Shown: positions 9,626 to 38,780 of the stretch, piece by piece | How positions within the stretch are numbered: the first letter of the stretch is position 1 | How the letters are laid out: each line of letters opens with the position of its first letter | Sequence record: PP239276.1 | DNA: 64,000 nucleotides | From: Escherichia phage BME3 | Strand: one strand, 5' to 3' | Made by a program: the position numbers and the translations under genes | Notes under the pieces: model-generated | Told to the model about the DNA's origin: nothing | Database searches by the model: none | Seen by the model: only the letters and a program-made list of their open reading frames with translations

Positions 9626-9710
9626 ATGGTAGCTAAGGTGAGACTCGAACTCACAATCCCTTGGGGCAATACGTTCTAAGCGTATCGTGTATACCATTCC
9701 ACCACTTAGC
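9626..9710 (-). tRNA. tRNA-Leu (anticodon UAG), type II
   Basis: 85 nt with long variable arm; anticodon arm ATACG/CTTAGAA/CGTAT; T-arm GTGAG/TTCGAGT/CTCAC. Confidence 0.6.
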
Positions 9711-9787
9711 CATAAAAATACACCACTGTAAGAAGCCTCAATGTGCTATTGACAGTTAACCAAGTCTACTCCTTGGATGGTGATATT

Positions 9788-9862
9788 TGGTGCAGAGAGA
9801 TGGTAACGATCCATCCTTTCTACCTTTTCAGGGTAGCACTAATCCGTCTCAGCTATCTCTGC
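9788..9862 (-). tRNA. tRNA-Phe (anticodon GAA)
   Basis: Acceptor GCAGAGA/TCTCTGC, anticodon arm CTACC/CTGAAAA/GGTAG; T-loop ATCGTTA is non-canonical. Confidence 0.5.
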
Positions 9863-9867
9863 AAATT

Positions 9868-9943
9868 TGGTCAGTGCGGCAGGACTCGAACCTGCGACCT
9901 GAAGCGTCCAAGGCTCCCACGCTACCAACTGCGCTACGCACTG
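9868..9943 (-). tRNA. tRNA-Pro (anticodon UGG)
   Basis: Perfect acceptor CAGTGCG/CGCACTG, D-arm GCGC..GCGT, anticodon arm GGAGC/CTTGGAC/GCTTC, T-arm GCAGG/TTCGAGT/CCTGC, CCA encoded. Confidence 0.7.
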
Positions 9944-9950
9944 TAAATCT

Positions 9951-10025
9951 TGGCTGGAGATCTAGGAATCGAACCTAGTCATCACGACTTCAAAGGCCGT
10001 TGCCTTCCCACTAGGCTAATCTCCA
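9951..10025 (-). tRNA. tRNA-Gln (anticodon UUG)
   Basis: Acceptor TGGAGAT/ATCTCCA, anticodon arm ACGGC/CTTTGAA/GTCGT, T-arm CTAGG/TTCGATT/CCTAG. Confidence 0.6.
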
Positions 10026-10124
10026 ATAAAACTAAAAATCACTTAAAAAGAACCGCTAGAGTTTGAAGGAGAAAACCATGAGCGAAAAGAGAAATTTTCT
10101 CTAGCGATTCCATTTAAATAATCT

Positions 10125-10199
10125 TGGAGCGAGTAACAGGACTTGAACCTGCACCTGGAGGGTGGAAACCTCATATGCTACCATTAACACTATACCCGC
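10125..10199 (-). tRNA. tRNA-Gly (anticodon UCC)
   Basis: Acceptor GCGGGTA/TACTCGC, anticodon loop TTTCCAC, T-arm GCAGG/TTCAAGT/CCTGT. Confidence 0.55.
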
Positions 10200-10254
10200 T
10201 TAACAATATTACTCTAACATATTATTAGCCCCTTTGTCAAGAGGCTTTTGATAT

Positions 10255-10584
10255 TTATTTTAAAATAGTAGATGAACCACGTCTGTTTAGATATGCAATA
10301 GTAAAGTCCAAATCACCTATTTCTTCAGGTTCCCACTGACCTTCTAAGCCATAACAAGAACAATGATATGCGTGTACTTCATAAAACAAAGATGTTTTCA
10401 TATCATAAAAATAAACGTGAGATTCACCTTCATAATATGCACAATCATAAGTGGCAGAAAGAATTACAATGTTATCCTTATCTAACTCTACTTCATAATA
10501 TCTTTCAACATCTTCAATATGATCAAAACCATCGAAAACATTGATATTAAAATATTTCTCTAACTCTTTTTCTGTCACATACAC
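10255..10584 (-). CDS. hypothetical protein embedded in tRNA cluster
   Basis: 109-aa ORF with GTG start preceded by AAGGAG RBS; Cys/Tyr/His-rich; no recognisable motif. Confidence 0.5.
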   Translation of the reverse strand: MYVTEKELEKYFNINVFDGFDHIEDVERYYEVELDKDNIVILSATYDCAYYEGESHVYFYDMKTSLFYEVHAYHCSCYGLEGQWEPEEIGDLDFTIAYLNRRGSSTILK

Positions 10585-10601
10585 TCCTTTAGAGTTAAAA
10601 T

Positions 10602-10676
10602 TGGTGCTCCCACAAGGACTCGAACCCTGATAAGTTGCTTACAAGGCAACCGTAATAGCCGTTATACGATAGGAGC
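10602..10676 (-). tRNA. tRNA-Thr (anticodon UGU)
   Basis: Acceptor GCTCCTA/TGGGAGC, anticodon arm GTTGC/CTTGTAA/GCAAC, T-arm CAGGG/TTCGAGT/CCTTG. Confidence 0.65.
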
Positions 10677-10682
10677 AATACT

Positions 10683-10759
10683 TGGACTCGACAGGATTCG
10701 ATACCTGCAATTCCAGAAGCCTCTTGGCGACTGGGGGTTTACCTTAACTCTACAAGTCC
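10683..10759 (-). tRNA. tRNA-like element (non-canonical: 8-nt T-loop, no clear anticodon arm)
   Basis: Acceptor GGACTTG/CGAGTCC and T-stem GCAGG/CCTGT enclose an 8-nt loop TATCGAAT; the interior forms a long hairpin (CCAGTCGCC-AAGA-GGCTTCTGG) rather than D/anticodon arms. Confidence 0.3.
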
Positions 10760-10766
10760 ATAATTC

Positions 10767-10851
10767 TGGCGATGGATCAAGGATTTGAACCTTGCTAGAA
10801 CTTTCGTTCACGGATTAACAGTCCGTCGCCCAACCACTAGGCCAATCCATC
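10767..10851 (-). tRNA. type II (long variable arm) tRNA with GUU (Asn) anticodon; Ser-like body
   Basis: 85 nt; acceptor GATGGAT/ATCCATC, discriminator G, 3-bp D-stem GCC/GGC, anticodon arm ACGGA/CTGTTAA/TCCGT, variable hairpin GAAC-GAAA-GTTC, canonical T-arm CAAGG/TTCAAAT/CCTTG. Confidence 0.5.
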
Positions 10852-10858
10852 TTTAATT

Positions 10859-10945
10859 TGGTGCAGGTAGTTGGACTCGAACCAACGAAGCCCAGAAGGG
10901 CAAGAGATTTACAGTCTCCAGCAATTGCCGCTATGCGATACCTAC
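10859..10945 (-). tRNA. tRNA-Tyr (anticodon GUA), type II
   Basis: 87 nt; acceptor GTAGGTA/TACCTGC, anticodon arm GGAGA/CTGTAAA/TCTCT, long variable arm, T-arm GTTGG/TTCGAGT/CCAAC. Confidence 0.6.
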
Positions 10946-10950
10946 GTGTT

Positions 10951-11026
10951 TGGTACATCGTGAAGGATTCGAACCTTCGACCTTGGAGTTAAAAGCCCCT
11001 TGCTCTACCAACTAAGCTAACGATGT
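10951..11026 (-). tRNA. tRNA-Lys (anticodon UUU)
   Basis: Perfect acceptor ACATCGT/ACGATGT, D-arm GCTT-AGTTGGTA-GAGC, anticodon loop CTTTTAA, T-arm GAAGG/TTCGAAT/CCTTC. Confidence 0.65.
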
Positions 11027-11150
11027 ATAAATTATCTTTAAAATAGCCAGTGTTTGCGGCACTTGACTATGGGATATCGGTAAGATGGTGGGGCCATCTG
11101 CCGAAAGTTTACTCTGTTAAAGTAAGATGACAAGCTACATTAAAGATAAC

Positions 11151-11236
11151 TTGGCGGTAGATGTAGGACTTGAACCTACACGCCGTTTCCGACGACAGTT
11201 TAGCAAACTGTTGTGGCTACCATTTCACCAATCTAC
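11151..11236 (-). tRNA. tRNA-Ser (anticodon GCU), type II
   Basis: 86 nt; acceptor GGTAGAT/ATCTACC, discriminator G, 3-bp D-stem GTG/CAC, anticodon arm ACAGT/TTGCTAA/ACTGT, long variable arm. Confidence 0.65.
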
Positions 11237-11245
11237 CGTTCTTAA

Positions 11246-11446
11246 TTATTCAAAACAACCGGAATCTTTTTGTTCTGCTTTTACCATACGAATATTTTTA
11301 CCATCTTCAGATTGTTGAAGATTAGAATACTCATAAATAACTTTATTATCTACAATCTTAACTCCGGTAACAACCTGTCCAATAGTTTTATAATTCATAA
11401 AGCTCCTAGTTGAATTTGGAGGAAGATAATGGAGTCGAACCATCAC
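11246..11446 (-). CDS. small hypothetical protein
   Basis: Track ORF overlaps tRNA-Ser(UGA) 3' end; AGGAG RBS before internal MNYKTIGQ suggests a ~50-aa product starting near 11398. Confidence 0.3.
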   Translation of the reverse strand: MMVRLHYLPPNSTRSFMNYKTIGQVVTGVKIVDNKVIYEYSNLQQSEDGKNIRMVKAEQKDSGCFE

Positions 11447-11506
11447 CGTATCGCTACAATGGGCCAGGGTTCAAACCTGGTTGCGCACCGCTGCGCCCTA
11501 CCTTCC
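11417..11506 (-). tRNA. tRNA-Ser (anticodon UGA), type II
   Basis: 90 nt; anticodon arm CCAGG/TTTGAAC/CCTGG, long variable arm, T-arm GATGG/TTCGACT/CCATT. Confidence 0.6.
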
Positions 11507-11569
11507 CGTTATCATACTTTAAATCTAACATAAAACTATGTTGCTTGTCAAGTAGTTTTTAAAACTTTT

Positions 11570-11651
11570 TGGCCGGGGTGACAGGATTCGAACCTGCATA
11601 CTCCAATTACTCGGTTAACGCCTGATTAGAAGTCAGGTGAGATACACCCCG
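11570..11651 (-). tRNA. tRNA-like element with Arg-type anticodon arm (UCU); D-arm not resolvable
   Basis: Acceptor CGGGGTG/CACCCCG and canonical T-arm; stem-loop CCTGA/CTTCTAA/TCAGG sits only 7 nt after the acceptor, followed by a 23-nt extra region. Confidence 0.35.
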
Positions 11652-11723
11652 TTTTCACAGTAACTATAACAAAAAACTAAGTAAATGTCAAGATATTTTT
11701 TACTAAATTGCTATTTAAATTGA

Positions 11724-11829
11724 AGCCTAGTTATGGAATCGAACCATATTTCGTATTTAGTTAGACAAAGCGATCTAACATATTTTTCAGGCTTTGATGG
11801 CCTCGGAATTACCAAATACCCTACCAGGC
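11724..11829 (-). tRNA. tRNA-like element (over-long, 8-nt internal loop; possible pseudo-tRNA or structured RNA)
   Basis: Canonical T-arm TATGG/TTCGATT/CCATA and 7-bp acceptor pairing spanning about 106 nt; interior contains hairpin GTTAGA-TCGCTTTG-TCTAAC instead of a canonical anticodon arm. Confidence 0.25.
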
Positions 11830-11831
11830 GT

Positions 11832-11917
11832 TGGTGCAAGTGGAGGGATTCGAACCCTCAATCATTTAAGCGTTGCGTTTTAAGCACAATGTGTATCACC
11901 AATTCCACCACACTTGC
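11832..11917 (-). tRNA. tRNA-Leu (anticodon UAA), type II
   Basis: 86 nt; perfect acceptor GCAAGTG/CACTTGC, anticodon arm TTGTG/CTTAAAA/CGCAA, long variable arm, T-arm GAGGG/TTCGAAT/CCCTC. Confidence 0.6.
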
Positions 11918-11948
11918 ATATAGGAGATGCATAGCACCTCCTTTTAAA

Positions 11949-12024
11949 TGGTGGTTCCCCAGGGTTACAATCCCTGCCCTCGACACTTATGAGGTGTGCG
12001 CTCTCGTCAGTGAGCTATGGAACC
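11949..12024 (-). tRNA. tRNA with CAU anticodon (third CAU species; Met/fMet/Ile2)
   Basis: Acceptor GGTTCCA/GGGAACC, D-arm GCTC..GAGC, anticodon arm CACAC/CTCATAA/GTGTC; T-loop ATTGTAA is non-canonical. Confidence 0.5.
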
Positions 12025-12771: not shown

Positions 12772-14505
12772 TTAGTCAACCTGGATGGTTCCCATAGTAC
12801 GAAGAACCTCTACGTCAACACGGTTGCGGATATCAGTGAATGTTTCATCACGTCCTTCTACTTGTGGTGTAATAACCTTACCATCTTTGAAGATAACTTG
12901 TAACTCATTGTCTTCATCCTGGATATCTTTAAAAGAAAGATTATCTACAAGAGAAAGATTACCATTAGTATCCTTAACAACCTTAATAAAACCTTTTGCA
13001 GAGCGTTTACCAGGATCAGTTTTAGGCTCCTTACTTACCAAAATTTCGTGTTCACCGATGATGCTACCTGTTGCTTTAACAGCAAAGCCAAAAGTATCTC
13101 GTGTATTGAACTGATAAGTATAACTACCAACACCAAATACAATATTGGAAGCAGCAAAGCCTTTCTTCTTCAGTCGGCGTAAGATTTCGTGTTCTCGTTC
13201 AACAGTAATAGAATCACCATAAATCATACCGATGTGCTGATCAAGAACCTTGTAGCCTTTTCGGTTGATAGTACCGCCAAACACTTCCCAAAGGATTTGA
13301 ATAGAACCTACTGCTTCACAATAAGGAATCTCATAAGTTTCATCAATACAATCAGCAACGCTACAATCCTGAAGAACATTGTAATACTTATTAACATCAG
13401 CCAAATGAACTACTTCAGTGGCTGTCGCAATACCATTATTTAAAAGGTCTTCATAGTTATCAAAAGATTCAACATTGTATCCTGCAACAACTTTAACCGG
13501 ATCTCCTGAATCTGGACGAATAACAAGACGACCATTTCGTGACATAATGGACTCTTTCAATTCTACCAGAATGCGAGTCAAGACAGCCCAGTAATCATAA
13601 GAATCTGCTACATATGAACAAAAACCTTCTGGAACAATTTCTTCAATATAGCGGCGAAGAAACTCTTTCTCTGCTACATAACGAAGCCCATCAACATCAT
13701 CTTTAAGATGTGGGAAATGTTTCTTCAGATCTTCAACAATAGCTCCAATGTTAGTCGTTGCTACTGAATGTTCTGTTGCCGGAATAGAACCTGCAACAAA
13801 TTGATCATAATCAATACCATAATAATCATGCACAGTTTCAATAGCCAGAATATTATCTGTTCCTGTGAAAGATGCCAAATGAGCGATACCACTCTTATAA
13901 CCATCTTCGATATTGCTTAAGCCACGTAGACTAAAATCATGACACTGGAAATTAACGTGATCAATGTTATCACACGTTGCCATCGCATACGCCATAGCGA
14001 TACGCTTATACTGAAAAGCTGCTGTGGCATTAGTCATTGTCTTCCAAGTTTCATCTGACAAGAGTGTTTCAACATAGTTAGTTAACCAAAAGAATTTTTC
14101 TAAAGTGTTATGCACAGTAAACACAGGAACACCAATAGGGCACAAAACACCTTCTGGCAGAGATCGAACTTCTAGCGGAAGATAACCTAAATCGTGCAAT
14201 TCTCCCCAACATTCAGCAGAAGGAGCAGAAGCACCTAATGCATTTTTAGACATACGATAAAATTTATTTACTGCTGCACTACGAGACATTTTAAAGAAGC
14301 TGTCCCACATAGTTACAAGAGCATCAGTAACTGCTCGACGAATACCTAAAACAATAACACCACGTGCTTCACGATCTGCATAATGTGCAAAGTTTTTATC
14401 ATTACGAGGAGTTAAATTAGAGAAAATGAGTTTTGTATTTTGGTTGTACATCTGCTTGTGACCAGGTTTATACCAATCAGTAGCAAAAGGTGCAAAAATA
14501 TTCAT
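12772..14505 (-). CDS. nadV: nicotinamide phosphoribosyltransferase-like protein (NAMPT family; NARP1 Namat-like)
   Basis: 577 aa; NAMPT hallmarks TDWYK, PEGVLCPIGVPVFTVHNT..FWLTNYVET, HDFSLRG, IRPDSGDP. Confidence 0.85.
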   Translation of the reverse strand: MNIFAPFATDWYKPGHKQMYNQNTKLIFSNLTPRNDKNFAHYADREARGVIVLGIRRAVTDALVTMWDSFFKMSRSAAVNKFYRMSKNALGASAPSAECWGELHDLGYLPLEVRSLPEGVLCPIGVPVFTVHNTLEKFFWLTNYVETLLSDETWKTMTNATAAFQYKRIAMAYAMATCDNIDHVNFQCHDFSLRGLSNIEDGYKSGIAHLASFTGTDNILAIETVHDYYGIDYDQFVAGSIPATEHSVATTNIGAIVEDLKKHFPHLKDDVDGLRYVAEKEFLRRYIEEIVPEGFCSYVADSYDYWAVLTRILVELKESIMSRNGRLVIRPDSGDPVKVVAGYNVESFDNYEDLLNNGIATATEVVHLADVNKYYNVLQDCSVADCIDETYEIPYCEAVGSIQILWEVFGGTINRKGYKVLDQHIGMIYGDSITVEREHEILRRLKKKGFAASNIVFGVGSYTYQFNTRDTFGFAVKATGSIIGEHEILVSKEPKTDPGKRSAKGFIKVVKDTNGNLSLVDNLSFKDIQDEDNELQVIFKDGKVITPQVEGRDETFTDIRNRVDVEVLRTMGTIQVD

Positions 14506-14576: not shown

Positions 14577-15470
14577 TTAAAAATTCCACACGTATGGAGA
14601 TACAATTTGTTGTTGCAAATCTGACTGATTCTTAACAAGAACACCGGAATCTTCTTGGATGTTATCTTCCCACACATTAAGAGAATGAATGCAGTCAAAG
14701 TGCTCACTTAACTCTTTAAGACCTTTAGAAAAGATACCGTGTGTAACATATAGCTCAATCTTACCTGCGTTACGAGCACGTAGCACTTTAGCCAATTCGA
14801 TAAAAGTTCTACCACCATCACAGATATCATCTACGATCATCAGGTTACGCTTATTGAAATCCTGTACAGAAATGTCTGTACGAACAATAGCACCTGTTGC
14901 AGTATCTCTAACCTTCTCTGCACAGAACACATCTAAAGACATTTTCTTAGATAATTTAAATATTTTCTTAAGAGCACCACCATCAGGACTAACAAGAGCA
15001 AAATTCTCCATACGTAACTTCCACTTTAAAGTTTCGTAAGCAATCTCTTCTTGAGGTATTACATAGAGTCTGTCAAACACTGCTGGAGTAACATCGCTAT
15101 GTGGATCAGCAACGATAACACGTGAGAAATTTAATGAATTAATTATAGAAGCAAATGCTTTAACTCCGAATGCTTCCCCAGGCTCACACACTCTGTCTTG
15201 TCGTGCATACGGTACATACAGCATGAGTAAATCAACACAATATGGTTTATGATATAGCATATTGTCCAATGCATTCTTAGTCATAACCAAAGTCATCAAG
15301 TCTTTAGCAGATCTTACTTCTAAAGAGAGTAAGATTCTGTCTGTAGCATGATTGAAACCTGATAGATTCGTATCTAGTTGAACATGTTGTTCTCCACCAG
15401 AGAATGTAAAGACTTTAACGTCTACATCAGTAACATAACAGTCAACACCATGTAGAATACTAACTTTCAT
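14577..15470 (-). CDS. prs: ribose-phosphate pyrophosphokinase-like protein (PRPP synthetase family; NARP1 Adps-like)
   Basis: 297 aa; Prs motifs PYARQDR, LVSPDGGA, MIVDDICDGGRT; directly upstream of the NAMPT-like gene on the same strand. Confidence 0.85.
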   Translation of the reverse strand: MKVSILHGVDCYVTDVDVKVFTFSGGEQHVQLDTNLSGFNHATDRILLSLEVRSAKDLMTLVMTKNALDNMLYHKPYCVDLLMLYVPYARQDRVCEPGEAFGVKAFASIINSLNFSRVIVADPHSDVTPAVFDRLYVIPQEEIAYETLKWKLRMENFALVSPDGGALKKIFKLSKKMSLDVFCAEKVRDTATGAIVRTDISVQDFNKRNLMIVDDICDGGRTFIELAKVLRARNAGKIELYVTHGIFSKGLKELSEHFDCIHSLNVWEDNIQEDSGVLVKNQSDLQQQIVSPYVWNF

Positions 15471-18003: not shown

Positions 18004-18366
18004 TTGATGTGCGCTACTAATCAACATGATATTTGTTACCAACCTCTTACTTGGCTTGGTGAGGATCACTATGCTCAACGTGTTATAGTCTGCGCTGCGA
18101 ATAAGTATATTCTCAATAATGGCGAAGAGTTAATTATTCCTTGTGTTAGGCATGCAAATCCTGTACTATCTGCACAACTTAATGTTTTAAAAGATGCAGG
18201 ATTGATTGATAAACTGTTTTGCTTACCTGATAATCAAGGGTTTATTGATCAGTATTATAACTGGTGGAGTCGCAAAGATGCTTATATCATTGCAGATAAC
18301 GCCAAACAAATTAACTACGAAAGAAATGGTCACAACAGTGAACTATTCAGCGAGGGATTATACTAA
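18004..18366 (+). CDS. hypothetical protein
   Basis: 120-aa ORF directly upstream of the phosphoesterase gene. Confidence 0.5.
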   Translation: MMCATNQHDICYQPLTWLGEDHYAQRVIVCAANKYILNNGEELIIPCVRHANPVLSAQLNVLKDAGLIDKLFCLPDNQGFIDQYYNWWSRKDAYIIADNAKQINYERNGHNSELFSEGLY

Positions 18367-18917
18367 TGTTTATTACAAGTGATTTGCATTTTATGCACAA
18401 ACGTATCCGAGAGTTTGCTCCTGAATATCGCCCGTGGGAAGATATGGAGCATATGACAGAAGCACTGATCGAAGCATGGAATAAATGTGCCACAACACCA
18501 GGAGTAAAGATGTACCATCTTGGGGACTTCTGTTTCGGGACTGAAGAAGATACCCGTAAGATTGCTTCCCGTCTCCAAGGAGATATTACTTACTGTGTTG
18601 GGAACCATGATTATAGTAAACACAGAAAAGTGCTTGCAGAGTATGGAGAAGTGGTTTATTATGACGAAGTGAAATATCAGAAGCTGTTCTTCGTCTTAAG
18701 TCATTACCCTATGGCTGCCTGGAATAAACAAGGGCATGGATCAATCATGCTACACGGACACTCTCACGGATCATTCCCTGACCATTTGTATGGGAAGATG
18801 TTGGATGTTGGTTGGGATGCACACGGGAAAATCTTGCATTTTGACGAAATCATCTCTATTATGGATAAGCGTGATATTGTTGTTGTAGACCATCATAAGA
18901 TAATCAAAGGAGATTAA
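18366..18917 (+). CDS. calcineurin-like metallophosphoesterase (candidate RNA 2',3'-cyclic phosphodiesterase / 3'-phosphatase)
   Basis: 183 aa; metallophosphatase motifs DLHF, GDFCFG, GNHD, HGHSH. Confidence 0.75.
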   Translation: MFITSDLHFMHKRIREFAPEYRPWEDMEHMTEALIEAWNKCATTPGVKMYHLGDFCFGTEEDTRKIASRLQGDITYCVGNHDYSKHRKVLAEYGEVVYYDEVKYQKLFFVLSHYPMAAWNKQGHGSIMLHGHSHGSFPDHLYGKMLDVGWDAHGKILHFDEIISIMDKRDIVVVDHHKIIKGD

Positions 18918-18918
18918 G

Positions 18919-19851
18919 GTGGCTAAGTTCAATTGTGATGACCTGATTGCAAAAGGTTTAGTGCATAAAAAAGAAGTTAAATCTGGAGAGTATGCTGGTC
19001 TTGCTGTACTTAAATACAAAAACAATGTATTCTGGGATAACTTGTGGAACGTTGACAAACGACTTTTAGATTGTCGTGGGTTGGTTGTTGATTCAGAAGA
19101 CAATGTTGTTATTTGGCCTTTTACTAAAATCTTTAATCGTTTTGAAAATGGTACAGATCTTCCAGCAGACGAAATTGTAGATGCTGTCCGTAAAGTAAAC
19201 GGTTTTATGGCATCTGTAGGTGTGTACAAAGGGAAACTTGTTGTATCAACAACAGGGAGCCTAGAATCAGATTTCGCAATTATGGCAAAGAACCGTATTG
19301 TTTCCGAGTGTGACGACATAGAGTATTTCATTAAGTGGACAGAAAGTGCAAAAGCAACTTTTCTTTTTGAAATCTGTGATCCTTCTGATCCACATATTGT
19401 CGAAGAAGAACCAGGCGCATACTTAATTGGAGCAAGAATTCAAAATCTTGATGGGACAAGTTTCATGTTACCTGAAGGTGTTCTTGATGGGATTGCATCT
19501 GTTACAAAATTTAAACGTCCTGAAGTTTATCCGATGATTAAATTTTCAGATGTTGTTGAAATGTCTAAACATTGTAAACACGAAGGGTTTGTAGTTCGTG
19601 AAACAAACTACCCGTTTAACTTACTGTTAAAGATTAAGTCACCATACTATCTTGCTAAAAAATTCCTTATGCGTGGTGGCAATAAGAAGTGGGATATGAT
19701 TTGGGACAACCCAAACAATGCTAAACAAATTGTTGACGAAGAATATTATACTTTGCTAGAATGGCTTCGAAACAACTTTACGAAGGCTCAATGGGCTGCT
19801 CTCGATCCACAAGAGAGACGTAAAGAAATAGAAAACTTCTTTGGAGGCTAA
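18919..19851 (+). CDS. RNA ligase-like nucleotidyltransferase
   Basis: 310 aa; covalent nucleotidyltransferase motif I KVNGF, motif IV EGFVVR, motif V LKIKS; too short for an OB-fold DNA ligase, and a separate DNA ligase is present. Confidence 0.6.
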   Translation: MAKFNCDDLIAKGLVHKKEVKSGEYAGLAVLKYKNNVFWDNLWNVDKRLLDCRGLVVDSEDNVVIWPFTKIFNRFENGTDLPADEIVDAVRKVNGFMASVGVYKGKLVVSTTGSLESDFAIMAKNRIVSECDDIEYFIKWTESAKATFLFEICDPSDPHIVEEEPGAYLIGARIQNLDGTSFMLPEGVLDGIASVTKFKRPEVYPMIKFSDVVEMSKHCKHEGFVVRETNYPFNLLLKIKSPYYLAKKFLMRGGNKKWDMIWDNPNNAKQIVDEEYYTLLEWLRNNFTKAQWAALDPQERRKEIENFFGG

Positions 19852-20256
19852 ATGAAACAACTTATCATTTTACGTGGTGTTTCAGGCGCAGGTAAATCTA
19901 CAGTAGCAGAAATTATCTCTGAAAATCATTGGCCTATTTGTGAGGCAGATCAATACCACTACACTGAAGATGGTGTGTATGAGTGGAAACAAGAGAATAT
20001 CCATAAAGCACACCAATGGTGTCGTGTCAAAGTACAAAAATATATGCAGTATGGTGTTGAAAAGATTATTGTCTCTAACACTTCAACCACAGAGAAAGAA
20101 CTTAAACCTTATTTAACTCTTGCTGAAGAGTTTGGTTATCAAGTTATCTCTTTAGTAGTTGAAAATAGGCACGGTAACGACTCAATTCATGAGGTTCCAC
20201 AACATATTCGTGATCAGCAAGAGAAACGTCTTCGCAGTTCACTTAAACTACAATAA
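19852..20256 (+). CDS. polynucleotide 5'-kinase-like P-loop kinase
   Basis: 134 aa; Walker A GVSGAGKST at N-terminus, overall layout resembling the kinase domain of T4 Pnk; start 1 nt after the ligase-like gene stop. Confidence 0.65.
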   Translation: MKQLIILRGVSGAGKSTVAEIISENHWPICEADQYHYTEDGVYEWKQENIHKAHQWCRVKVQKYMQYGVEKIIVSNTSTTEKELKPYLTLAEEFGYQVISLVVENRHGNDSIHEVPQHIRDQQEKRLRSSLKLQ

Positions 20257-24622: not shown

Positions 24623-25657
24623 GTGGCGTTCCAAGCGTCTTCAGCTTTAGAACAAAGAAAAATCCACGCTGTACACAAGGCTTCCGGTAATGTAAAAGAG
24701 TTTGAAACAAGAACAGATTTTTGGGGTAAATCTTCAAAAAATATTGGAGGATGGTTAGGAGCACTTAACGCGCAACGCGAAGCTGCTGGTAAGAAGTTGT
24801 TCTCTAGAGAAGATTTTGAAATAAAAGATGTTCAAATAGTCCCAGATAATATTTCTTTTACGTTTCAAGCTGCAAAGACAAAAATAACCCAGATGATGGA
24901 TCACCTAAAACTTCAAAAGTATTGCGGTGTCATCGGGGTAGGAAAAACCTTCCGGCATTCTTTCAAAATGCCAAAAGAATATAAATCAGAACGATCAGAT
25001 TTAAGACCAATCCATTTATCAGATACTAAAGATTATTTAGTTGAAAAACATAACGGTGACGTTGTTACTAGTATTGAGGCAGATGATGCTTTAGAAATCT
25101 ATGGATATGCAGGGTATAAAGCCTACAAGGAAACTGGTAAGTTTTCTCATATTGTAGCATCTATCGACAAAGATAGCTTGCACACACCAAGTTTACTCTT
25201 TAACTTTTATAAAGAGGATGGTGTTTATAAAAATCCTTGTATTATTCTGATTGATGAATCTATCGGTGATATCTGGATCGTAGAAAAAGGTAAGAAAAAA
25301 GAAATTAAGGGTTGGGGTAGTTACTGGTTAGCTTATCAAATGCTAATGGGCGATAAGACAGATAGTATTCGACCTTACCAAGATTTCGATGTTAAGTTTG
25401 GAGATATTACTTGCTTTAATCTTATTTCCAAATGTAAAACACAGGCTGAACTTTTTCAGACAGTTAAAGATCAGTATTATGAATGGTTCCCAGATGGCGT
25501 TAAATTTACTTCTTGGGATGGTGAAGAAGTAGAAATGACAACTGATGAATGGATAGAGACAATTTTTCAGTTGGTATATATGAAACGTTGGGCGAATGAT
25601 GAAACAACTTTTGAAAGTATGCTACAAGCGTATATTTCAGAGCAGGAGGAACATTGA
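24623..25657 (+). CDS. RNase H / flap-endonuclease-like 5'-3' exonuclease (T4 rnh-like)
   Basis: 344 aa; motifs align to T4 RNase H: IEADDALEIYG (EADD), ILIDESIGDIW (DxD), LMGDKTDSIRP (L-GDK-D helix-hairpin-helix region). Confidence 0.65.
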   Translation: MAFQASSALEQRKIHAVHKASGNVKEFETRTDFWGKSSKNIGGWLGALNAQREAAGKKLFSREDFEIKDVQIVPDNISFTFQAAKTKITQMMDHLKLQKYCGVIGVGKTFRHSFKMPKEYKSERSDLRPIHLSDTKDYLVEKHNGDVVTSIEADDALEIYGYAGYKAYKETGKFSHIVASIDKDSLHTPSLLFNFYKEDGVYKNPCIILIDESIGDIWIVEKGKKKEIKGWGSYWLAYQMLMGDKTDSIRPYQDFDVKFGDITCFNLISKCKTQAELFQTVKDQYYEWFPDGVKFTSWDGEEVEMTTDEWIETIFQLVYMKRWANDETTFESMLQAYISEQEEH

Positions 25658-26616
25658 GTAAATTAACAGACGAACAGAAAGCCTTGATTGTATCTATGAA
25701 AGCACAAGGTTATTCTTCGCGTAAGATTGCACAAGAGGTGTTGGGAAGTTCTACTAAGAAGAGCACAGTAAATGATTACTTAGCTCGTGTAAATTCACCA
25801 CATCGCGGTGCTCCGCAAGATAAAGGTGGGCCAGTAATTAAAATTATTGACGTAGAGACAGCACCGGAGATTGTGTATAGCTTCTCACGTTTCAAAGCCT
25901 TTATTGCACCTGAACAAGTTATTCGTCGAGGTTACTTGCTTTCCTATTCATCTGCTGATTTAGAAACAGGAGAAGTAGAAGGTAAAAACCTTAGCAATTA
26001 CCCTCTGTTTGACATAGATCATACAGATGATTGGGAATTATGTCAAGATCTGTGGCACTTGCTTGACGATGCAGATATTGTGATCGCACACAACGGTATT
26101 AAGTTTGATAAGGCTTATATTAACCAACGTTTTGCTTTTCACGGTATGGAGCCACCATCGCACTATGTTGTAATTGATACACTCAAGGCAGCTAAGAAGC
26201 AGTTTGCACTACCTTCTAATGCGCTTAAAGAAATGTGTTTGTATTTTGATACAGAAAACTTTAAACTTGACAATGAAGGTTTTCCTTTGTGGAAAGCATG
26301 TTGTGAAGGAGACAGACACGCCTTCTTCCGTATGCAAACATACAACGATGGTGATGTTGTTTCTCTTAGAGATCTTTACATCAAACTTCGTGCGTGGATT
26401 CCACAACATCCTAACGTATCTGCATTCTATGACGATGAAAAACTTCGTTGTCCTCGTTGCGGTAAAGAGCACCTTGAAGTTGTTCCTGGTAAGGTTTACA
26501 CAACAGCGGTTAGTACATTCCAAGTACTAAGATGCACATCATGTAATAGCCTGTCTCGTGGACGTGTTAATTTGCGTAGCAAAGAGAAGCGTGTAAACAC
26601 TGTTATTGGAATTTAA
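25654..26616 (+). CDS. DEDD-family 3'-5' exonuclease with N-terminal HTH and C-terminal zinc ribbon
   Basis: TTG start with AGGAGG RBS; Exo I IIDVETAP, Exo II VIAHNGIKFDKAYI, Exo III YNDGDVVSLRDLY; C-terminal CPRCGK...CTSCNS. Confidence 0.65.
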   Translation: MSKLTDEQKALIVSMKAQGYSSRKIAQEVLGSSTKKSTVNDYLARVNSPHRGAPQDKGGPVIKIIDVETAPEIVYSFSRFKAFIAPEQVIRRGYLLSYSSADLETGEVEGKNLSNYPLFDIDHTDDWELCQDLWHLLDDADIVIAHNGIKFDKAYINQRFAFHGMEPPSHYVVIDTLKAAKKQFALPSNALKEMCLYFDTENFKLDNEGFPLWKACCEGDRHAFFRMQTYNDGDVVSLRDLYIKLRAWIPQHPNVSAFYDDEKLRCPRCGKEHLEVVPGKVYTTAVSTFQVLRCTSCNSLSRGRVNLRSKEKRVNTVIGI

Positions 26617-26621
26617 TAAAA

Positions 26622-26646
26622 AGGGGCGAAAGCCCCTTTATTTTTG
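26622..26646 (+). terminator. intrinsic terminator
   Basis: AAGGGGCGAAAGCCCCTTTATTTTT; same hairpin sequence recurs at ~39710 and ~51716. Confidence 0.6.
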
Positions 26647-26654
26647 GAGGATTT

Positions 26655-27056
26655 ATGACTACAGCACTGGATATTCAAATTGATGGTGATCACTACAAAC
26701 GTATGCGTATGCAACCTTTGGAACTTGCATATCTAATTGGTGCAACTCCTTGTTTCACTAAGTTAGCTAAGTATGCTTGTCGAAACAAAGGTGATCGTGT
26801 GATCAACCTAAACAAAGCGATTCACGTTATTCATATTGAAAAAGAATTGAGTGATAAGTATTACAATATGTTGTATGAAGCCTACCCTAATCTAAAAAAC
26901 CCTGTAAAAATTGAGTTAGCTAATCAGCTAATTGATTTATACACAGACGATGATCTTGTTCGTAAGGCTTTAAAAGCAATGTATAAAGGTAAGTATATTG
27001 AAGCAGCAGATGCTATTGAACAATTGAAGGAGAGTGTAGATGGCTTCTCACGGTAA
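26655..27056 (+). CDS. DUF3310-like phage protein
   Basis: 133 aa; DHYKRMRMQPLELAYLIGATPCF..LAKYACRNKGD matches the HY..QP.E...G..F..AIKY..R pattern recalled for DUF3310. Confidence 0.4.
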   Translation: MTTALDIQIDGDHYKRMRMQPLELAYLIGATPCFTKLAKYACRNKGDRVINLNKAIHVIHIEKELSDKYYNMLYEAYPNLKNPVKIELANQLIDLYTDDDLVRKALKAMYKGKYIEAADAIEQLKESVDGFSR

Positions 27057-27234
27057 ACAATACGGAGAGGGTGAAGTATATAAAATATACAATAAACGTG
27101 GAGATAAACTCCTATATACAATCACAATCCCAGAAAACATGTGTAAGGCTGGTTTAGACCGTATGCTTTTCTTTAAGTATAACATTCCACCTGGAGATTA
27201 TGTAGCTAAAAAGGTGAGCACTATTGGAAAATAA
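27040..27234 (+). CDS. hypothetical protein
   Basis: 64-aa ORF. Confidence 0.35.
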   Translation: MASHGKQYGEGEVYKIYNKRGDKLLYTITIPENMCKAGLDRMLFFKYNIPPGDYVAKKVSTIGK

Positions 27235-27799
27235 AGAACCTAAAGTTATTTGGGGAGATGGAACACCTTGGAAAACTCAAGCAGCCTTTTATACATATTT
27301 AAGGGGTTGCTTAAGGAAAGCATGGGTGAGACACCCGAATAAGATAAAAAAGATCCAATCTGTACGATTTAAAGCCGATAGGTTGGACAAAGATGGCAAT
27401 GTAGTTTTAGATAAGAAAACAGGCAAACCGAAACAGGTTTGGAATTGTAAATGTGAATTGTGTGGACATACAGGAGGTATGAAAGACTTTCAAGTAGACC
27501 ATATTAATGCAGCAGGTACATTAACCTGTTATGAAGATATCCCAAGTTTTGTTTTACGCCTATTGTATGTAACAGAAGACGACCTGCGTGTAGTTTGTAA
27601 GCAGTGCAACGCTATCCTGGCTTATGCTGACAAGCACGATATGACATTCAGGGAAGCAAAAGCGGAGAAAGAAGCGATAGCTTTATGCCAGTCTAAAAAG
27701 GATAAAAATTGGCTGACGAAGCGCGGAATTTCACCAGAAAGTACAATAACTAAGCGAAGAAAACAGATAGTAAAAATTCTTCTTGACGAAGAGAAATAA
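27224..27799 (+). CDS. HNH homing endonuclease
   Basis: 191 aa; CELCGHTGG...VDHINAAG...CKQCN (HNH with flanking Cys pairs); free-standing between nucleotide-metabolism genes. Confidence 0.6.
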   Translation: MENKEPKVIWGDGTPWKTQAAFYTYLRGCLRKAWVRHPNKIKKIQSVRFKADRLDKDGNVVLDKKTGKPKQVWNCKCELCGHTGGMKDFQVDHINAAGTLTCYEDIPSFVLRLLYVTEDDLRVVCKQCNAILAYADKHDMTFREAKAEKEAIALCQSKKDKNWLTKRGISPESTITKRRKQIVKILLDEEK

Positions 27800-35311: not shown

Positions 35312-35522
35312 GGAGGATAGTAGAATGATGCTAGATCGACTGATCAATGCTCCTCGCGTAACAGTAAGTCCAAAAACATTTGCATCACTTTTAGAAGATG
35401 CTAGAGAGGTTTATAACTTTACTGAAGAAGAGATTCCTGTTCCTGTTGAAAAAGGTTCCAGATGGTTGTTTTATGAAGGTATTATTTTTACTGAAGGGAA
35501 TAATTGGAAGGAGACTAAATGA
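35232..35522 (+). CDS. hypothetical protein
   Basis: AAGGAGG RBS before internal MMLDRLINAPR near 35326; ~65 aa; directly upstream of rfbB. Confidence 0.4.
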   Translation: MQKKPTHNFLKNITLKRKLLFLNTFGKEDSRMMLDRLINAPRVTVSPKTFASLLEDAREVYNFTEEEIPVPVEKGSRWLFYEGIIFTEGNNWKETK

Positions 35523-36508
35523 AATACTTAGTAACAGGTGGTTTAGGCTTTATTGGAAGTGCAGTAGTTCGTTTCCTGGCTAAAAATACTAAGAATGATA
35601 TTTACGTTATAGATAAATGGGGTTACGCTTCAGACCCTAGAAATTTATCAGAAACACCTAATGTAAAGTTTTGTCGTGTTGACTTGACAAATGCTCAGTT
35701 AACTGCTAAGATTGTGGCAGATGTTAATCCAGATTATATAATGCATCTTGCAGCAGAAAGTCACGTAGATAATTCAATAGCATCACCGAGTGTTTTTATA
35801 AATTCAAATATTGTTGGAACATTTAATCTTCTAGAAGCTGTTCGTTTAATGGGAGATAAATCAAATCTTAAAATGTTTCATCATATTTCAACAGATGAAG
35901 TGTATGGTGATATGGAAGAAGGGGATTATCCGTTTACAGAACAGAATCCTTATAAGCCAAGTAGTCCATATGCTGCATCTAAAGCTGCAAGCGATCATTT
36001 GGTAAGAGCGTGGCATCGTACTTATGGTATTCCGACAGTTATAACAAATTGTTCAAATAATTTTGGAGCATATCATCATCCAGAAAAACTAATACCTAAA
36101 ACGATAACAAATATCTTAATGCATAAACCAATCCCTGTTTATGGTAATGGTCTTCAAGTAAGAGACTGGTTATACGTTGACGATCACGCAGAGGCATTAC
36201 ACCTAGTAGTAACTAAAGGCAAATCTGGAGAAACATATAATATTGGGAGCAGAAACCCTAGAACTAATATTGATGTAATCTATATGATTTGTGATTATAT
36301 GGATGCGGTATATCCATCTGAAACAGATGCTTGTAGCCTCATTGAGATGGTTACAGATAGGCCTGGGCATGATCTAAGATATGAAGTGAATCCTTATAAG
36401 ATTGAAAAGGAATTAGGGTGGAAAGCTAAAGGCACATTTGAAGAAAAACTTTATTCAACCATTGATTGGTATGTAGATAACAAAGAGTGGTGGGAAAATA
36501 AAGTTTAA
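35519..36508 (+). CDS. rfbB: dTDP-glucose 4,6-dehydratase
   Basis: 329 aa; SDR extended family: N-terminal [12 protein letters not shown] Rossmann motif, catalytic YAASKAASD (YxxxK). Confidence 0.9.
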
Positions 36509-36516
36509 GGAGGAGT

Positions 36517-37386
36517 ATGAAAGGTATTATCTTAGCAGGTGGTAGTGGAACAAGACTTTACCCAGTTACTAAAGGGGTTAGTAAACAACTATTACCAATT
36601 TACGATAAACCTATGATTTATTATCCACTCTCTGTCCTAATGCTTTCTGGAATTAGGGAAATACTAATAATTACAACACCAGAAGATCAAATTAATTTTG
36701 TAAATCTTCTAGGTGATGGTTCTTCTTTTGGTATTTCCCTACAGTATGCAATACAGGATAGCCCAAAAGGTTTAGCAGAAGCGTTTATTATTGGTGAGAA
36801 CTTTATTGGTGAAGATTCTGTAGCACTTGTGCTAGGTGATAATTTATTCTTTGGTCAGAGTTTTGGTAGCATTTTAGATTCTGCTAAAGAACATATTGAA
36901 AAGAATGGTGGAGCTAATATTTTTGGGTATCACGTAAATGATCCTGAAAGATTTGGTGTTGTTGAGTTTGATTCTGAAGGTACAGTGGTGAGTATTGAAG
37001 AAAAACCAAAAGCACCAAAAAGCAACTATGCAATTACAGGCTTGTACTTTTACGATAATTCTGTTATACAGAAAGCTAAGAGCGTTAAACCTTCTGCTAG
37101 AGGGGAGTTAGAGATTACAGATATAAATGAGATGTACTGGAAAGAAAAGACTTTACGTGTCTGTAAACTAGGAAGAGGTTTCACTTGGCTGGATACAGGA
37201 ACACATGAAAGTCTTATGGAAGCATCTCAATTTGTTCATGCGATAGAAAAGCAACAAGGTATGAAGGTTGCATGCCTAGAGGAGATTGCTTTTAAAAATG
37301 AATGGATTACTTTAGACTCTGTAAAAAGTTCTGGAGAGGTTTTAAGTAAAACAGACTACGGTAAGTATTTACTTAAATTAAAATAA
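36517..37386 (+). CDS. rfbA: glucose-1-phosphate thymidylyltransferase
   Basis: 289 aa; [18 protein letters not shown]...[16 protein letters not shown] signature of RmlA. Confidence 0.9.
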
Positions 37387-37398
37387 AGGGGGAATTAA

Positions 37399-37953
37399 AT
37401 GATTCAAGCAACAAAAATCGAAGATTTGTTGATCATTCAACCTGACGTTTACGGAGATGAACGTGGCTTTTTCTTAGAAAGTTTTAATCAGGCTTTATAT
37501 GATCAATACATAGGTAAACAAAACTTTGTCCAGGATAACCACTCACGTTCTATTCGAGGAGTTCTACGTGGGCTTCATTTTCAAAAGAAAAACCCACAAG
37601 GGAAGTTAGTACGTTGTGTTCGTGGTGAAGTTTATGATGTTGCTGTAGATATTAGGGTTGGTAGTCCAACATTTGGAGAATGGGTAGGTGTTCTCTTATC
37701 TGAAAAGAATAAAACACAATTTTGGATTCCTCCTGGTTTCGCTCATGGCTTTGTTGTGATTAGCGACATTGCTGATTTTGAATATAAATGTACAGAATAT
37801 TACGATCCGACTTCAGAGTGTAGTCTTGCGTGGAATGATCCAGATATCAATATAGATTGGGGTTTTGATTTAATCTTTAATGATATTAATTTTAAACCTA
37901 TCTTGTCACAAAAAGATCAGCAAGCCAAAACACTAAAGGAGATCATATTTTGA
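37399..37953 (+). CDS. rfbC: dTDP-4-dehydrorhamnose 3,5-epimerase
   Basis: 184 aa; cupin RmlC motifs DERGFFLESFN, RGLHFQ, FWIPPGFAHGF. Confidence 0.85.
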   Translation: MIQATKIEDLLIIQPDVYGDERGFFLESFNQALYDQYIGKQNFVQDNHSRSIRGVLRGLHFQKKNPQGKLVRCVRGEVYDVAVDIRVGSPTFGEWVGVLLSEKNKTQFWIPPGFAHGFVVISDIADFEYKCTEYYDPTSECSLAWNDPDINIDWGFDLIFNDINFKPILSQKDQQAKTLKEIIF

Positions 37954-38780
37954 CAAAATTTTTAATCTTTGGTTCAAAAGGTCAATTAGGACAGTCTTTG
38001 GCAAAAGTTGCGCCCGAAGATGTTATTTTGATTGAAGCAAGTGATGTAGACATTACCAACTTTAAAGATGTTATGAATAGTCTTGTACAGCATGTACCTG
38101 ATGTTGTTGTGAATTGTGCGGCTTACACGGCAGTAGATAAAGCTGAAGAAGATGTTAACACCTGTATAAATGTTAATGCATACGGTGCAACAAACATTGC
38201 CAAAGCATGTAATGATTTACTGATACAGTTTGTACATATTTCAACAGACTATGTTTTTGATGGGCATGTCGCTGGCACAGAAGATAGTAAAACAAACCCC
38301 TTGAACACCTATGGTTACAGTAAACAATTAGGTGAAACTTTAGTACAAACAGTTTGTCCTACAGCACTTATTATCAGAACAGCTTCTGTTTATAGTGAGT
38401 TTGGACATAACTTTTTGAAAACTATGTTGGAACGCTACAACGGTGGTCAAAAAGAATTTAATGTAGTATGTGATCATTTATCATGTCCTACTTATGCACC
38501 TGATCTGGCAGAAACAATTTTTAAACTTGTAAAAGATGGTGTAAATAGTAAAATTGTACACTATGCAGGTGCAGATTATATTTCTTGGTATGATTTTGCA
38601 CGAAAGATATTTCTTGTTATAGATTTATCTGTTACAGTTAATCCTGTATCTGCTTCAACCTATAATTCTAAAGCAGTCAGACCAGCAACATCTTATTTAA
38701 AAACAGATCCTACTTTAAATCCGCGAAGTGTTGATAGCGGTATTGTAAGAACTTTAACTATACTTTTAAACAAGGAGTGA
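37950..38780 (+). CDS. rfbD: dTDP-4-dehydrorhamnose reductase
   Basis: 276 aa; N-terminal FGSKGQLGQ Rossmann motif, SDR-like YGYSK, operon position after rfbC (4-nt overlap). Confidence 0.75.
   Translation: MTKFLIFGSKGQLGQSLAKVAPEDVILIEASDVDITNFKDVMNSLVQHVPDVVVNCAAYTAVDKAEEDVNTCINVNAYGATNIAKACNDLLIQFVHISTDYVFDGHVAGTEDSKTNPLNTYGYSKQLGETLVQTVCPTALIIRTASVYSEFGHNFLKTMLERYNGGQKEFNVVCDHLSCPTYAPDLAETIFKLVKDGVNSKIVHYAGADYISWYDFARKIFLVIDLSVTVNPVSASTYNSKAVRPATSYLKTDPTLNPRSVDSGIVRTLTILLNKE

Follow-up and report, generated by a model that had tools for sequence, protein, structure and literature searches.

The gene at positions 25654-26616 of the window (the whole 64,000-nucleotide stretch of Escherichia phage BME3 DNA analysed here; PP239276.1) encodes a free-standing DEDDy exonuclease of the PolB type, flanked by an N-terminal HTH and a C-terminal zinc ribbon, and is an ordinary conserved member of a common, already annotated phage family rather than an unusual invention. 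With moderate confidence, we regard its product as a stand-alone, DNA-tethered 3'-5' DNA exonuclease that would serve as the 3'-end-digesting partner of a FEN-type exonuclease and an endonuclease, and not as a proofreading subunit of the DNA polymerase.

Gene and domain organisation

The window belongs to a phi92-like coliphage (Justusliebigvirus), with 98-99% identity to phi92 and Bas61. The gene lies exactly where a preliminary description, made from the DNA letters, had placed it (+ strand, 320 aa), and the three-part layout proposed there, namely HTH, exonuclease and zinc ribbon, is borne out by domain profiles and structure prediction. The features discussed below are as follows:

24623-25657, + strand: upstream FEN/T7 gp6-type 5'-3' exonuclease gene, 344 aa (PHROG 107 'exonuclease', E 4.9e-53)
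25644-25649, + strand: Shine-Dalgarno sequence AGGAGG, 4 nt 5' of the TTG start (read from the sequence)
25654-26616, + strand: gene for HTH, DEDDy exonuclease and zinc ribbon, 320 aa plus stop (open reading frame list)
25654-25794, + strand: three-helix HTH of resolvase/transposase (homeodomain-like) type, residues 1-47 (AF2, profile against PDB, Pfam)
25795-25836, + strand: flexible linker, residues 48-61 (low confidence in AF2, pLDDT below 50 at residues 50-53)
25837-26427, + strand: PolB-type DEDDy 3'-5' exonuclease domain, residues 62-258 (PF13482, Foldseek, motifs)
25849-25857, + strand: Exo I, D66-V-E68 (sequence)
26089-26109, + strand: Exo II, H146-N-G-I-K-F-D152, with N147 and D152 (sequence)
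26341-26355, + strand: Exo III, Y230-N-D-G-D234 (sequence)
26428-26613, + strand: C-terminal zinc ribbon and basic tail, residues 259-320 (Cys conservation, AF2 strands)
26449-26460, + strand: CxxC knuckle C266-PR-C269 (sequence)
26533-26544, + strand: CxxC knuckle C294-TS-C297 (sequence)
26620-26646, + strand: terminator-like GC hairpin plus T run, directly 3' of the stop codon (sequence)
27224-27799, + strand: downstream HNH/Endonuclease VII-like nuclease gene, 191 aa (PHROG 1985 'HNH endonuclease', E 2.4e-65)

The gene is translationally coupled to the FEN-type gene, annotated in Bas61 as 'putative 5'-exonuclease': its TTG start codon, at 25654, overlaps the TGA stop of the FEN reading frame (ATTGA). 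The hairpin that follows consists of AAAGGGGCGAAAGCCCCTTT and then ATTTTTGG, and has 8 pairs, 5 of them GC. The downstream nuclease, of a kind that recurs near family genes in other phages, also has weaker matches to EndoVII PHROGs and weak ones to Pfam HNH and Endonuclease_7.

The AF2 model of the protein has a mean pLDDT of 92.9; the relative placement of its three domains is uncertain, given a pTM of 0.77 and the flexible linker. Three helices (residues 6-17, 22-30 and 33-47; pLDDT 87-97) make up the N-terminal domain, whose profile matches 2lvs, a solved HTH DNA-binding domain (E 1e-8), the PAI subdomain of Sleeping Beauty transposase (8e-7) and the DNA-binding domains of Tn3 resolvase (5e-6) and gamma-delta resolvase, the PDB matches spanning 1e-8 to 8e-4. 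Among 48 family members, HTH_23, HTH_38, HTH_SB and HTH_7 of Pfam each match 12-27 (HTH_23 27/48, HTH_38 24/48), the sequence of the BME3 protein taken alone being sub-threshold against HTH_38 (E 0.0013-0.036). On these matches the N-terminal segment is indeed an HTH, as had been proposed for G19-YSSRKIAQEV-29. It is of the type found in serine resolvases and Tc1/IS30-type transposases (HTH_7, HTH_23, HTH_38, HTH_SB), fused here to an exonuclease and not to a recombinase. Among orthologues (37-57% identical), it is as well conserved as the exonuclease core (47% and 47%), whereas identity in the linker is 25-39% against 47-82% for the flanking domains. Most likely, the HTH would act through this linker to tether the enzyme to duplex DNA.

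The exonuclease itself forms an alpha/beta core in the AF2 model (residues 62-258). All three Exo motifs are present at the positions given in the preliminary description, and the catalytic acidic residues are intact across an alignment of 215 homologues: D66 and E68 are found in 208 of them (the remaining 7 being fragments), D152 and Y230 in all 215 and D234 in 214, and N147 of Exo II is invariant or nearly so. Likewise, each of the four cysteines of the CPRCG...CTSCN ribbon is kept in 214 of the 215. Since the catalytic residues and the cysteines are effectively invariant, the motifs are not due to chance. The ribbon, already recognised in the preliminary description, is predicted to bind zinc and has three strands in the AF2 model (274-283, 288-294 and 300-306). 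Its matches to curated Zn-ribbon families are all sub-threshold (Zn_ribbon_8 in 24/40 members, Lar in 17/40, TFIIB in 7/40), and its profile matches PDB entries at E 4e-4 or weaker. It may help to hold the nucleic-acid substrate or brace the fold.

The enzyme class, as judged from the motifs and the predicted structure, is that of the DEDDy, PolB-type 3'-5' exonucleases, and metal-dependent 3'-5' activity is predicted. Residues 110-245 match Pfam PF13482 (RNase_H_2; 27.9 bits against a gathering cutoff of 22), which most homologues also carry in precomputed annotations. In a Foldseek search of the PDB, the best 50 matches are all family-B polymerase chains (E 9e-7 to 2e-5; probability 1.0 for the best, at E 1e-6 to 1e-5), with alignments of about 210-320 columns (about 220 for the best) and TM scores of 0.36-0.43, normalised on the three-domain query. 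Proofreading domains of family-B polymerases (Tgo/KOD/9°N, Pol epsilon, HSV-1 Pol) share the DEDDy set, with YxxxD as Exo III; the BME3 protein, at 12-19% identity to them, differs in being free-standing, without a polymerase domain, and in carrying the HTH and the zinc ribbon. DnaQ/Pol III epsilon belongs to the same RNase H-like exonuclease superfamily and shows weak local similarity around Exo II. Nevertheless, both the motif type and the NCBIfam scores speak against membership in the DnaQ group (DEDDh, PF00929), which is rejected: Exo III reads Y230-x3-D234 and not HxxxxD, the tyrosine being present in 215/215 homologues, and the NCBIfam epsilon models score 14-28 bits (best 28.1 against a cutoff of 196) where their cutoffs are 196-548. 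When the full-length sequence was searched against the PDB, no match was significant; Pol III epsilon came first, at E 0.45 (epsilon chains 0.45-0.8). The preliminary description had contrasted the protein with simple proofreading and dexA-like exonucleases; it belongs with the DEDDy enzymes of PolB type and not with DEDDh enzymes of DnaQ or DexA type.

Family, names and the exchangeable N-terminus

PHROG 403, labelled 'DNA polymerase exonuclease subunit', takes in almost the whole protein: residues 5-319 of 320 align with positions 3-319 of its 321-position profile (E 5.8e-108, 361.6 bits). Of about 50,700 phage records, 1,585 contain a relative, and grouping at 50% identity gives 3,520 clusters; far from being unusual, as first described, the architecture is the norm in a very large family of phage proteins. 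Proteins of phi92-like phages are 99.7-100% identical to the BME3 protein, and identical proteins are labelled in GenBank either 'DNA polymerase exonuclease subunit' or 'DnaQ-like 3'-5' exonuclease'. The family corresponds to phage cluster F.23 of PF13482 (YprB-like), whose members share the DEDDy core and the four-Cys ribbon; examples are Bas61 gp231, the 'YprB RNase H-like' protein of Pseudomonas phage LKA1 (the best match in a viral structure library, E 1.4e-30), ICP1 gp189 and mycobacteriophage LeBron gp93. A phage-only PF13482 cluster has been linked to PolB exonuclease clusters and called uncharacterised (Majorek et al. 2014, PMC3985635). Our literature search (ICP1 gp189, PF13482, DnaQ-like phage exonuclease, HTH/zinc-ribbon architecture) returned no biochemical study of the family, and the family names it returned are all derived from homology.

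Overexpression of LeBron gp93, which belongs to the family by BLASTP (E 6e-29), is reported to be highly toxic in Mycobacterium smegmatis (PMC13148394), and this toxicity fits an active nuclease. Two other DnaQ-like proteins from toxicity screens, Amelie gp49 (listed at 183 aa) and Adephagia gp57 (best match ribonuclease T), may not belong to the family, and the toxicity argument is therefore limited to LeBron gp93.

Family members differ from the BME3 protein, with its resolvase-type HTH, only in the N-terminal module. As read from the sequences, the exonuclease and the zinc ribbon stay fixed as a core, and a small DNA-binding module at the N-terminus can be exchanged: other lineages carry NUMOD1 (homing-endonuclease type, E 4.7e-9), Myb (1.4e-8) or IS1-type (IS1595/InsA) zinc ribbons in its place, and 31 of the 215 homologues have no such module at all. 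Podoviruses and mycobacteriophages lack it, and so do the members from LeBron (gp93), Luutsna-6 and O4. For phages without the fused HTH, fission of the domain, with the HTH encoded by a separate adjoining gene, found no support, hhalign of the HTH profile giving probabilities of 0.3% for O4 gp35, 2.5% for O4 gp33 and 26% for Tyson gp91. Exchangeable DNA-binding modules would be compatible with the earlier suggestion of targeted nucleic-acid degradation.

Gene neighbourhood and candidate roles

In annotated phages of 12 lineages the gene order is conserved: PolA, FEN, EndoVII/HNH, the family gene, then ThyA/RNR. The search for related loci used an alignment of nine sequences as the query, and the IMG/VR synteny set comprises 45 divergent loci, none above 47% identity and all with 5 kb or more of flanking sequence on either side; its tblastn counts are lower bounds. 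At least 32 of the 45 loci have a FEN gene no more than 8 kb away (29 upstream, every one on the same strand), at least 20 have EndoVII/HNH (18 upstream) and at least 23 have PolA (22 upstream), while RNR (at least 12) and ThyA (at least 6) are always downstream. In 22 of the 45, PolA precedes the family gene by 2-7 kb on the same strand. Such synteny with PolA is equally expected of a replisome accessory protein, and the clustering with ThyA/RNR may reflect only a generic early/middle 'DNA metabolism' operon.

Gene 6 exonuclease and gene 3 endonuclease of T7 form a set for host-DNA breakdown and recombination. As a functional analogy only, T7 has the order PolA, 5'-3' exonuclease and junction endonuclease, followed in the present family by a 3'-5' exonuclease and nucleotide-salvage genes; we know of no stand-alone 3'-5' exonuclease in T7, and a tie of the family to host-DNA degradation would be by analogy with the T7 set. 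In the mechanism that we propose, a metal-dependent 3'-to-5' exonuclease of the PolB/YprB (DEDDy) type would act on DNA; co-translated with FEN, it would digest 3' ends beside FEN and a nicking or junction-cutting endonuclease. We infer that it could trim replication and recombination intermediates at their 3' tails and flaps, convert endonuclease-cut host DNA into dNMPs for the salvage enzymes encoded by the adjacent Tdk/ThyA/RNR genes, or both.

A bolder version of the same reading, which we put forward as tentative, sees a mis-named family: a DNA-tethered 3'-5' exonuclease that would complete, as its fourth conserved gene, a cassette of PolA, FEN, EndoVII and Exo extending from T7-like podoviruses to 150-kb myoviruses. 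The interchangeable N-terminal module of the enzyme, whether a resolvase-type HTH, NUMOD1, Myb or an IS1-type zinc ribbon, would aim it at selected DNA (the host chromosome or rival elements, for example), making it a targeted and not a generic nuclease.

At first sight, the PHROG 403 and GenBank labels, a fold closest to polymerase proofreading domains and the position downstream of PolA all speak for a proofreading subunit that removes misincorporated nucleotides at the replication fork. We nevertheless consider this unlikely. The DNA polymerase of the phage is a T7-like PolA, not Pol III, and the cognate polymerase does not lack an exonuclease site of its own, as would be expected if the family supplied one: PolA of phi92-like phages has complete Exo I (DIE), Exo II (HNIINFD) and Exo III (YCIYD) motifs. 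Among complete PolA reading frames adjoining family members, Exo I is kept in 20/20 and an Exo II-like motif in 18/20, a count that covers these two motifs only, the Exo III regular expression being unreliable. An apparent absence of Exo I from phiKMV-like PolA was traced to an annotated start that is too short, the upstream GTG restoring 'MDVETT'; PolA of Luutsna-6 has Exo I when started at the upstream GTG. Because this T7-like PolA keeps its proofreading motifs, the label 'DNA polymerase exonuclease subunit' is doubtful; the labels are, moreover, derived from homology and not from experiment, and the protein is of DEDDy and not DnaQ type, with epsilon-model scores far below their cutoffs. 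Finally, other members carry NUMOD1, Myb or Zn-ribbon modules in place of the HTH, and no known proofreading subunit, Pol III epsilon included, has to our knowledge a swappable DNA-binding HTH of this kind.

Somewhat less probable again is a nuclease of counter-defence or inter-element conflict, in which the variable N-terminal module would aim the exonuclease at foreign or host DNA (the host chromosome, satellites, competing phages), or which would destroy nucleic acids involved in defence, for instance signalling oligonucleotides or msDNA. Exchange of N-terminal modules between lineages and the toxicity of the overexpressed homologue are consistent with it, as is a match, weak and partial, to PDC-S48, a candidate in PADLOC (E 1.6e-5). 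However, this match spans only the generic Exo II region and is the sole PADLOC match, and no finding here points to cyclic oligonucleotides; many members (31/215) are without any N-terminal module, the gene is a stable, syntenic part of the core replication module and not of an accessory island, and the literature searched held no escape-mutant or defence data. Because DEDDy enzymes include RNases such as RNase D (PMC3985635), an RNA substrate also has to be weighed, and the phage has 16 tRNA genes and, in the same window, an RNA ligase/PNK repair module; yet an RNase D-like 3'-5' exonuclease that trims phage tRNA precursors or RNA primers, or degrades host transcripts, is very unlikely, the closest structures being DNA-polymerase proofreading domains, the conserved neighbours (PolA, FEN, EndoVII) being DNA enzymes, and the family occurring also in small podoviruses without tRNA genes.

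Significance of the family

The stand-alone exonuclease favoured here represents one of the more widespread families of phage replication-module genes, present in model and therapeutic phages including Bas61 (BASEL collection), phi92, ICP1, phiKMV-like phages and many mycobacteriophages. Our analysis suggests that the homology-derived names of this family are misleading. Its substrate and role, once established, would correct thousands of annotations, and its role could explain the strong toxicity seen in mycobacteriophage overexpression screens.

Gene and catalytic core

The ORF was found exactly where the preliminary description had placed it, and the Exo I-III motifs, the GYSSRKIAQEV segment and the CPRC...CTSC pairs also lie at the positions that it gave.

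25654..26616, + strand: target ORF, 320 aa, TTG start
26620-26646: terminator-like site (GC hairpin and T run), 3' of the target gene

An AGGAGG sequence ends 4 nt before the TTG start, which overlaps the TGA stop of ORF 24623..25657 (sequence ATTGA). Over the surrounding 12 kb, identity to phi92, Bas61 (EmilieFrey), alia and some 50 further Justusliebigvirus coliphages is 98-99%; GenBank labels for the gene in Justusliebigvirus records are 'DnaQ-like 3'-5' exonuclease', 'DNA polymerase exonuclease subunit', 'putative exonuclease' and 'hypothetical protein'. A protein from a metagenome-derived collection (P0001) is 100% identical to its product.

The protein carries Exo I (D66-x-E68), Exo II (H146-N-x3-F-D152) and Exo III (Y230-x3-D234), and the five catalytic residues are invariant in 215 homologues, fragments apart. 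Because Exo III has the form YxxxD, the enzyme is, judging by its motifs, DEDDy and not DnaQ/DEDDh. An identity with DnaQ/Pol III epsilon was rejected, NCBIfam epsilon models scoring 14-28 bits against cutoffs of 196-548. Pfam PF13482 (RNase_H_2) scores above threshold, and PHROG 403 aligns with the protein over its full length (E 5.8e-108). From 37 homologues AF2 produced a high-confidence model (pLDDT 92.9). Among solved structures the top matches to this model all come from family-B polymerases, to their exonuclease domains (Tgo, KOD, 9°N, Pol epsilon, HSV-1; E ~1e-6); among predicted viral structures the closest is the 'YprB RNase H-like' protein of LKA1 (E 1.4e-30). A phage-only PF13482 cluster has been linked to PolB-exonuclease clusters and treated as uncharacterised (Majorek et al., PMC3985635). 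Between Exo II and Exo III lies a family-specific signature, IDTL ... K-x7-G-x2-LW, containing D175, K204, L212 and W213; these residues, outside the classical motifs, are invariant in a 37-sequence alignment, and D175 is kept in 209/215 homologues.

Zinc ribbon and exchangeable N-terminus

The N-terminal helices of the AF2 model span residues 6-17, 22-30 and 33-47. A profile of this segment (48 sequences) matched solved HTH DNA-binding domains (2lvs, 1e-8; Sleeping Beauty PAI subdomain, 8e-7; Tn3 resolvase, 5e-6; gamma-delta resolvase, 8e-4), and single members matched Pfam HTH_23 (27/48), HTH_38 (24/48), HTH_SB (16/48) and HTH_7 (12/48). Three helices with such profile and Pfam matches therefore bear out the N-terminal HTH proposed from the sequence. 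Mid-distance orthologues conserve the HTH and the core equally well; the linker (residues 48-61) shows little conservation and is modelled with low confidence. All four zinc-ribbon cysteines are present in 214/215 homologues, and the ribbon is predicted to form three β-strands (AF2), the C-terminal region matching many Zn-ribbon families, all below threshold.

The preliminary description was thus right about the three domains, but not in calling their combination unusual, since the family is already annotated and very widespread among phages: tblastn found relatives in 1,585 phage records (hosts including Mycobacterium, 608; Escherichia, 217; Pseudomonas, 214; and Vibrio, 95, ICP1 among them), and an exhaustive HMMER scan 3,520 clusters at 50% identity (E ≤1e-3). 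Across the family the exonuclease core and ribbon are constant and the N-terminus is modular. The target-type HTH occurs in ~84/215 homologues; other modules are NUMOD1 (E 4.7e-9), Myb (1.4e-8), IS1595/InsA-type zinc ribbons and sigma-70 region 4. Many homologues begin with a helical segment of no classifiable type, and 31/215 have no N-terminal module at all. This pattern argues against an unusual architecture and supports an exonuclease with an exchangeable, predicted DNA-binding head.

Among family members, the N-terminal module is replaced by a NUMOD1-like (homing-endonuclease type), IS1/IS1595-type zinc-ribbon or Myb-like domain in P0046, P0106, P0143, P0146, P0176, P0203, P0115; P0063, P0067, P0193; and P0089. 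P0116 has an N-terminal extension of 190 aa.

Genomic neighbourhood

Translation of the target gene is coupled to that of a FEN-type 5'-3' exonuclease gene (PHROG 107). Upstream lie RdgC, DNA ligase and an RNA ligase/PNK module, and downstream a 133-aa ORF, an HNH/EndoVII-like nuclease, Tdk, ThyA and RNR; a comparable neighbourhood recurs in annotated phages of 12 lineages. Synteny was sampled in 45 divergent IMG/VR loci (≤47% identity, flanked by 5 kb or more at either end).

Neighbours within 8 kb of the target-family gene (tblastn lower bounds)
FEN: at least 32/45 loci, 29 upstream, all same strand
EndoVII/HNH: at least 20/45 loci, 18 upstream, all same strand
PolA: at least 23/45 loci, 22 upstream, all same strand
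RNR: at least 12/45 loci, all downstream, all same strand
ThyA: at least 6/45 loci, all downstream, all same strand

From these positions, the conserved order reads PolA, FEN, EndoVII, target-family gene, then ThyA/RNR.

The 133-aa ORF directly 3' of the target gene (26655..27056, +) belongs to PHROG 10946 (unknown function) and had no match in a Pfam search. On visual inspection, a resemblance to the C-terminal motif of DUF3310 / T7 gp1.7 (nucleotide kinase) is seen in its N-terminal half; one distant tblastn match is labelled 'nucleotide kinase', and BLASTP against T7 gp1.7 is weak (E 0.092 over 43 aa). Were it a dNMP kinase, this would support a nucleotide-salvage reading of the target gene.

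Other genes in the window include:

9147..12024, - strand: 16 tRNA genes, including three tRNA-Met (cat) (ARAGORN)
12772..14505 and 14577..15470, both - strand: nicotinamide phosphoribosyltransferase and PRPP synthetase homologues (Bas61 annotation)
18366..20256, + strand: RNA (tRNA) repair module made up of phosphoesterase, RNA ligase and polynucleotide kinase, lying upstream of DNA ligase (Bas61 annotation)
35519..38780, + strand: dTDP-glucose 4,6-dehydratase, glucose-1-phosphate thymidylyltransferase, dTDP-4-dehydrorhamnose 3,5-epimerase and dTDP-4-dehydrorhamnose reductase, four consecutive genes (Bas61 annotation)

In the Bas61 record the equivalent region is annotated with 15 tRNA genes, so the tRNA sets of these phages differ slightly. 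From the Bas61 annotation, the second entry is a phage NAD+ salvage pair and the last a complete phage-borne pathway to dTDP-rhamnose. NAD+ salvage pairs of this kind have been reported to counter NAD-depleting defences.

Possible functions

We give about an even chance to an HTH-tethered 3'-5' DNA exonuclease working with FEN and EndoVII/HNH. The enzyme would stand alone, its HTH tethering it to duplex DNA, and would cooperate with the co-expressed FEN and EndoVII/HNH nucleases; the trio may trim 3' ends and flaps of replication/recombination intermediates and/or turn endonuclease-cut host DNA into dNMPs for the adjacent salvage enzymes. Searches of the literature yielded no biochemical study of a family member. 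Of 123 LeBron genes overexpressed in M. smegmatis, that for gp93, a member without the HTH (BLASTP E 6e-29), was one of the most toxic (PMC13148394), which is compatible with an active nuclease, though not specific to one.

That the protein serves the polymerase as a trans-proofreader is unlikely. PolA of the phi92-like phage (858 aa, T7 gp5-like) has its own DIE, HNIINFD and YCIYD motifs, and complete PolA ORFs adjoining family members retain Exo I (20/20) and an Exo II-like motif (18/20); a seeming loss of Exo I in a phiKMV-like PolA reflects an annotated start that is too late. Proofreading subunits are not known to carry swappable DNA-binding heads. The protein is probably not the polymerase's proofreader.

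The phiKMV-like PolA just mentioned is that of Pseudomonas phage vB_PpuP-Luutsna-6 (PP496462.1, here L004): the annotated start of its DNA polymerase (L004:1553-3844), at L004:1727, leaves out Exo I, and the frame, open from a GTG at L004:1553, begins there with VSILTMDVETT. As deposited, the CDS probably lacks its first 58 codons.

A targeted conflict or anti-defence nuclease seems slightly less likely still, and an RNA exonuclease improbable; the rest of the probability is given to no named reading. For this family, the useful outcome is that its common name, 'DNA polymerase exonuclease subunit', is probably a misnomer.
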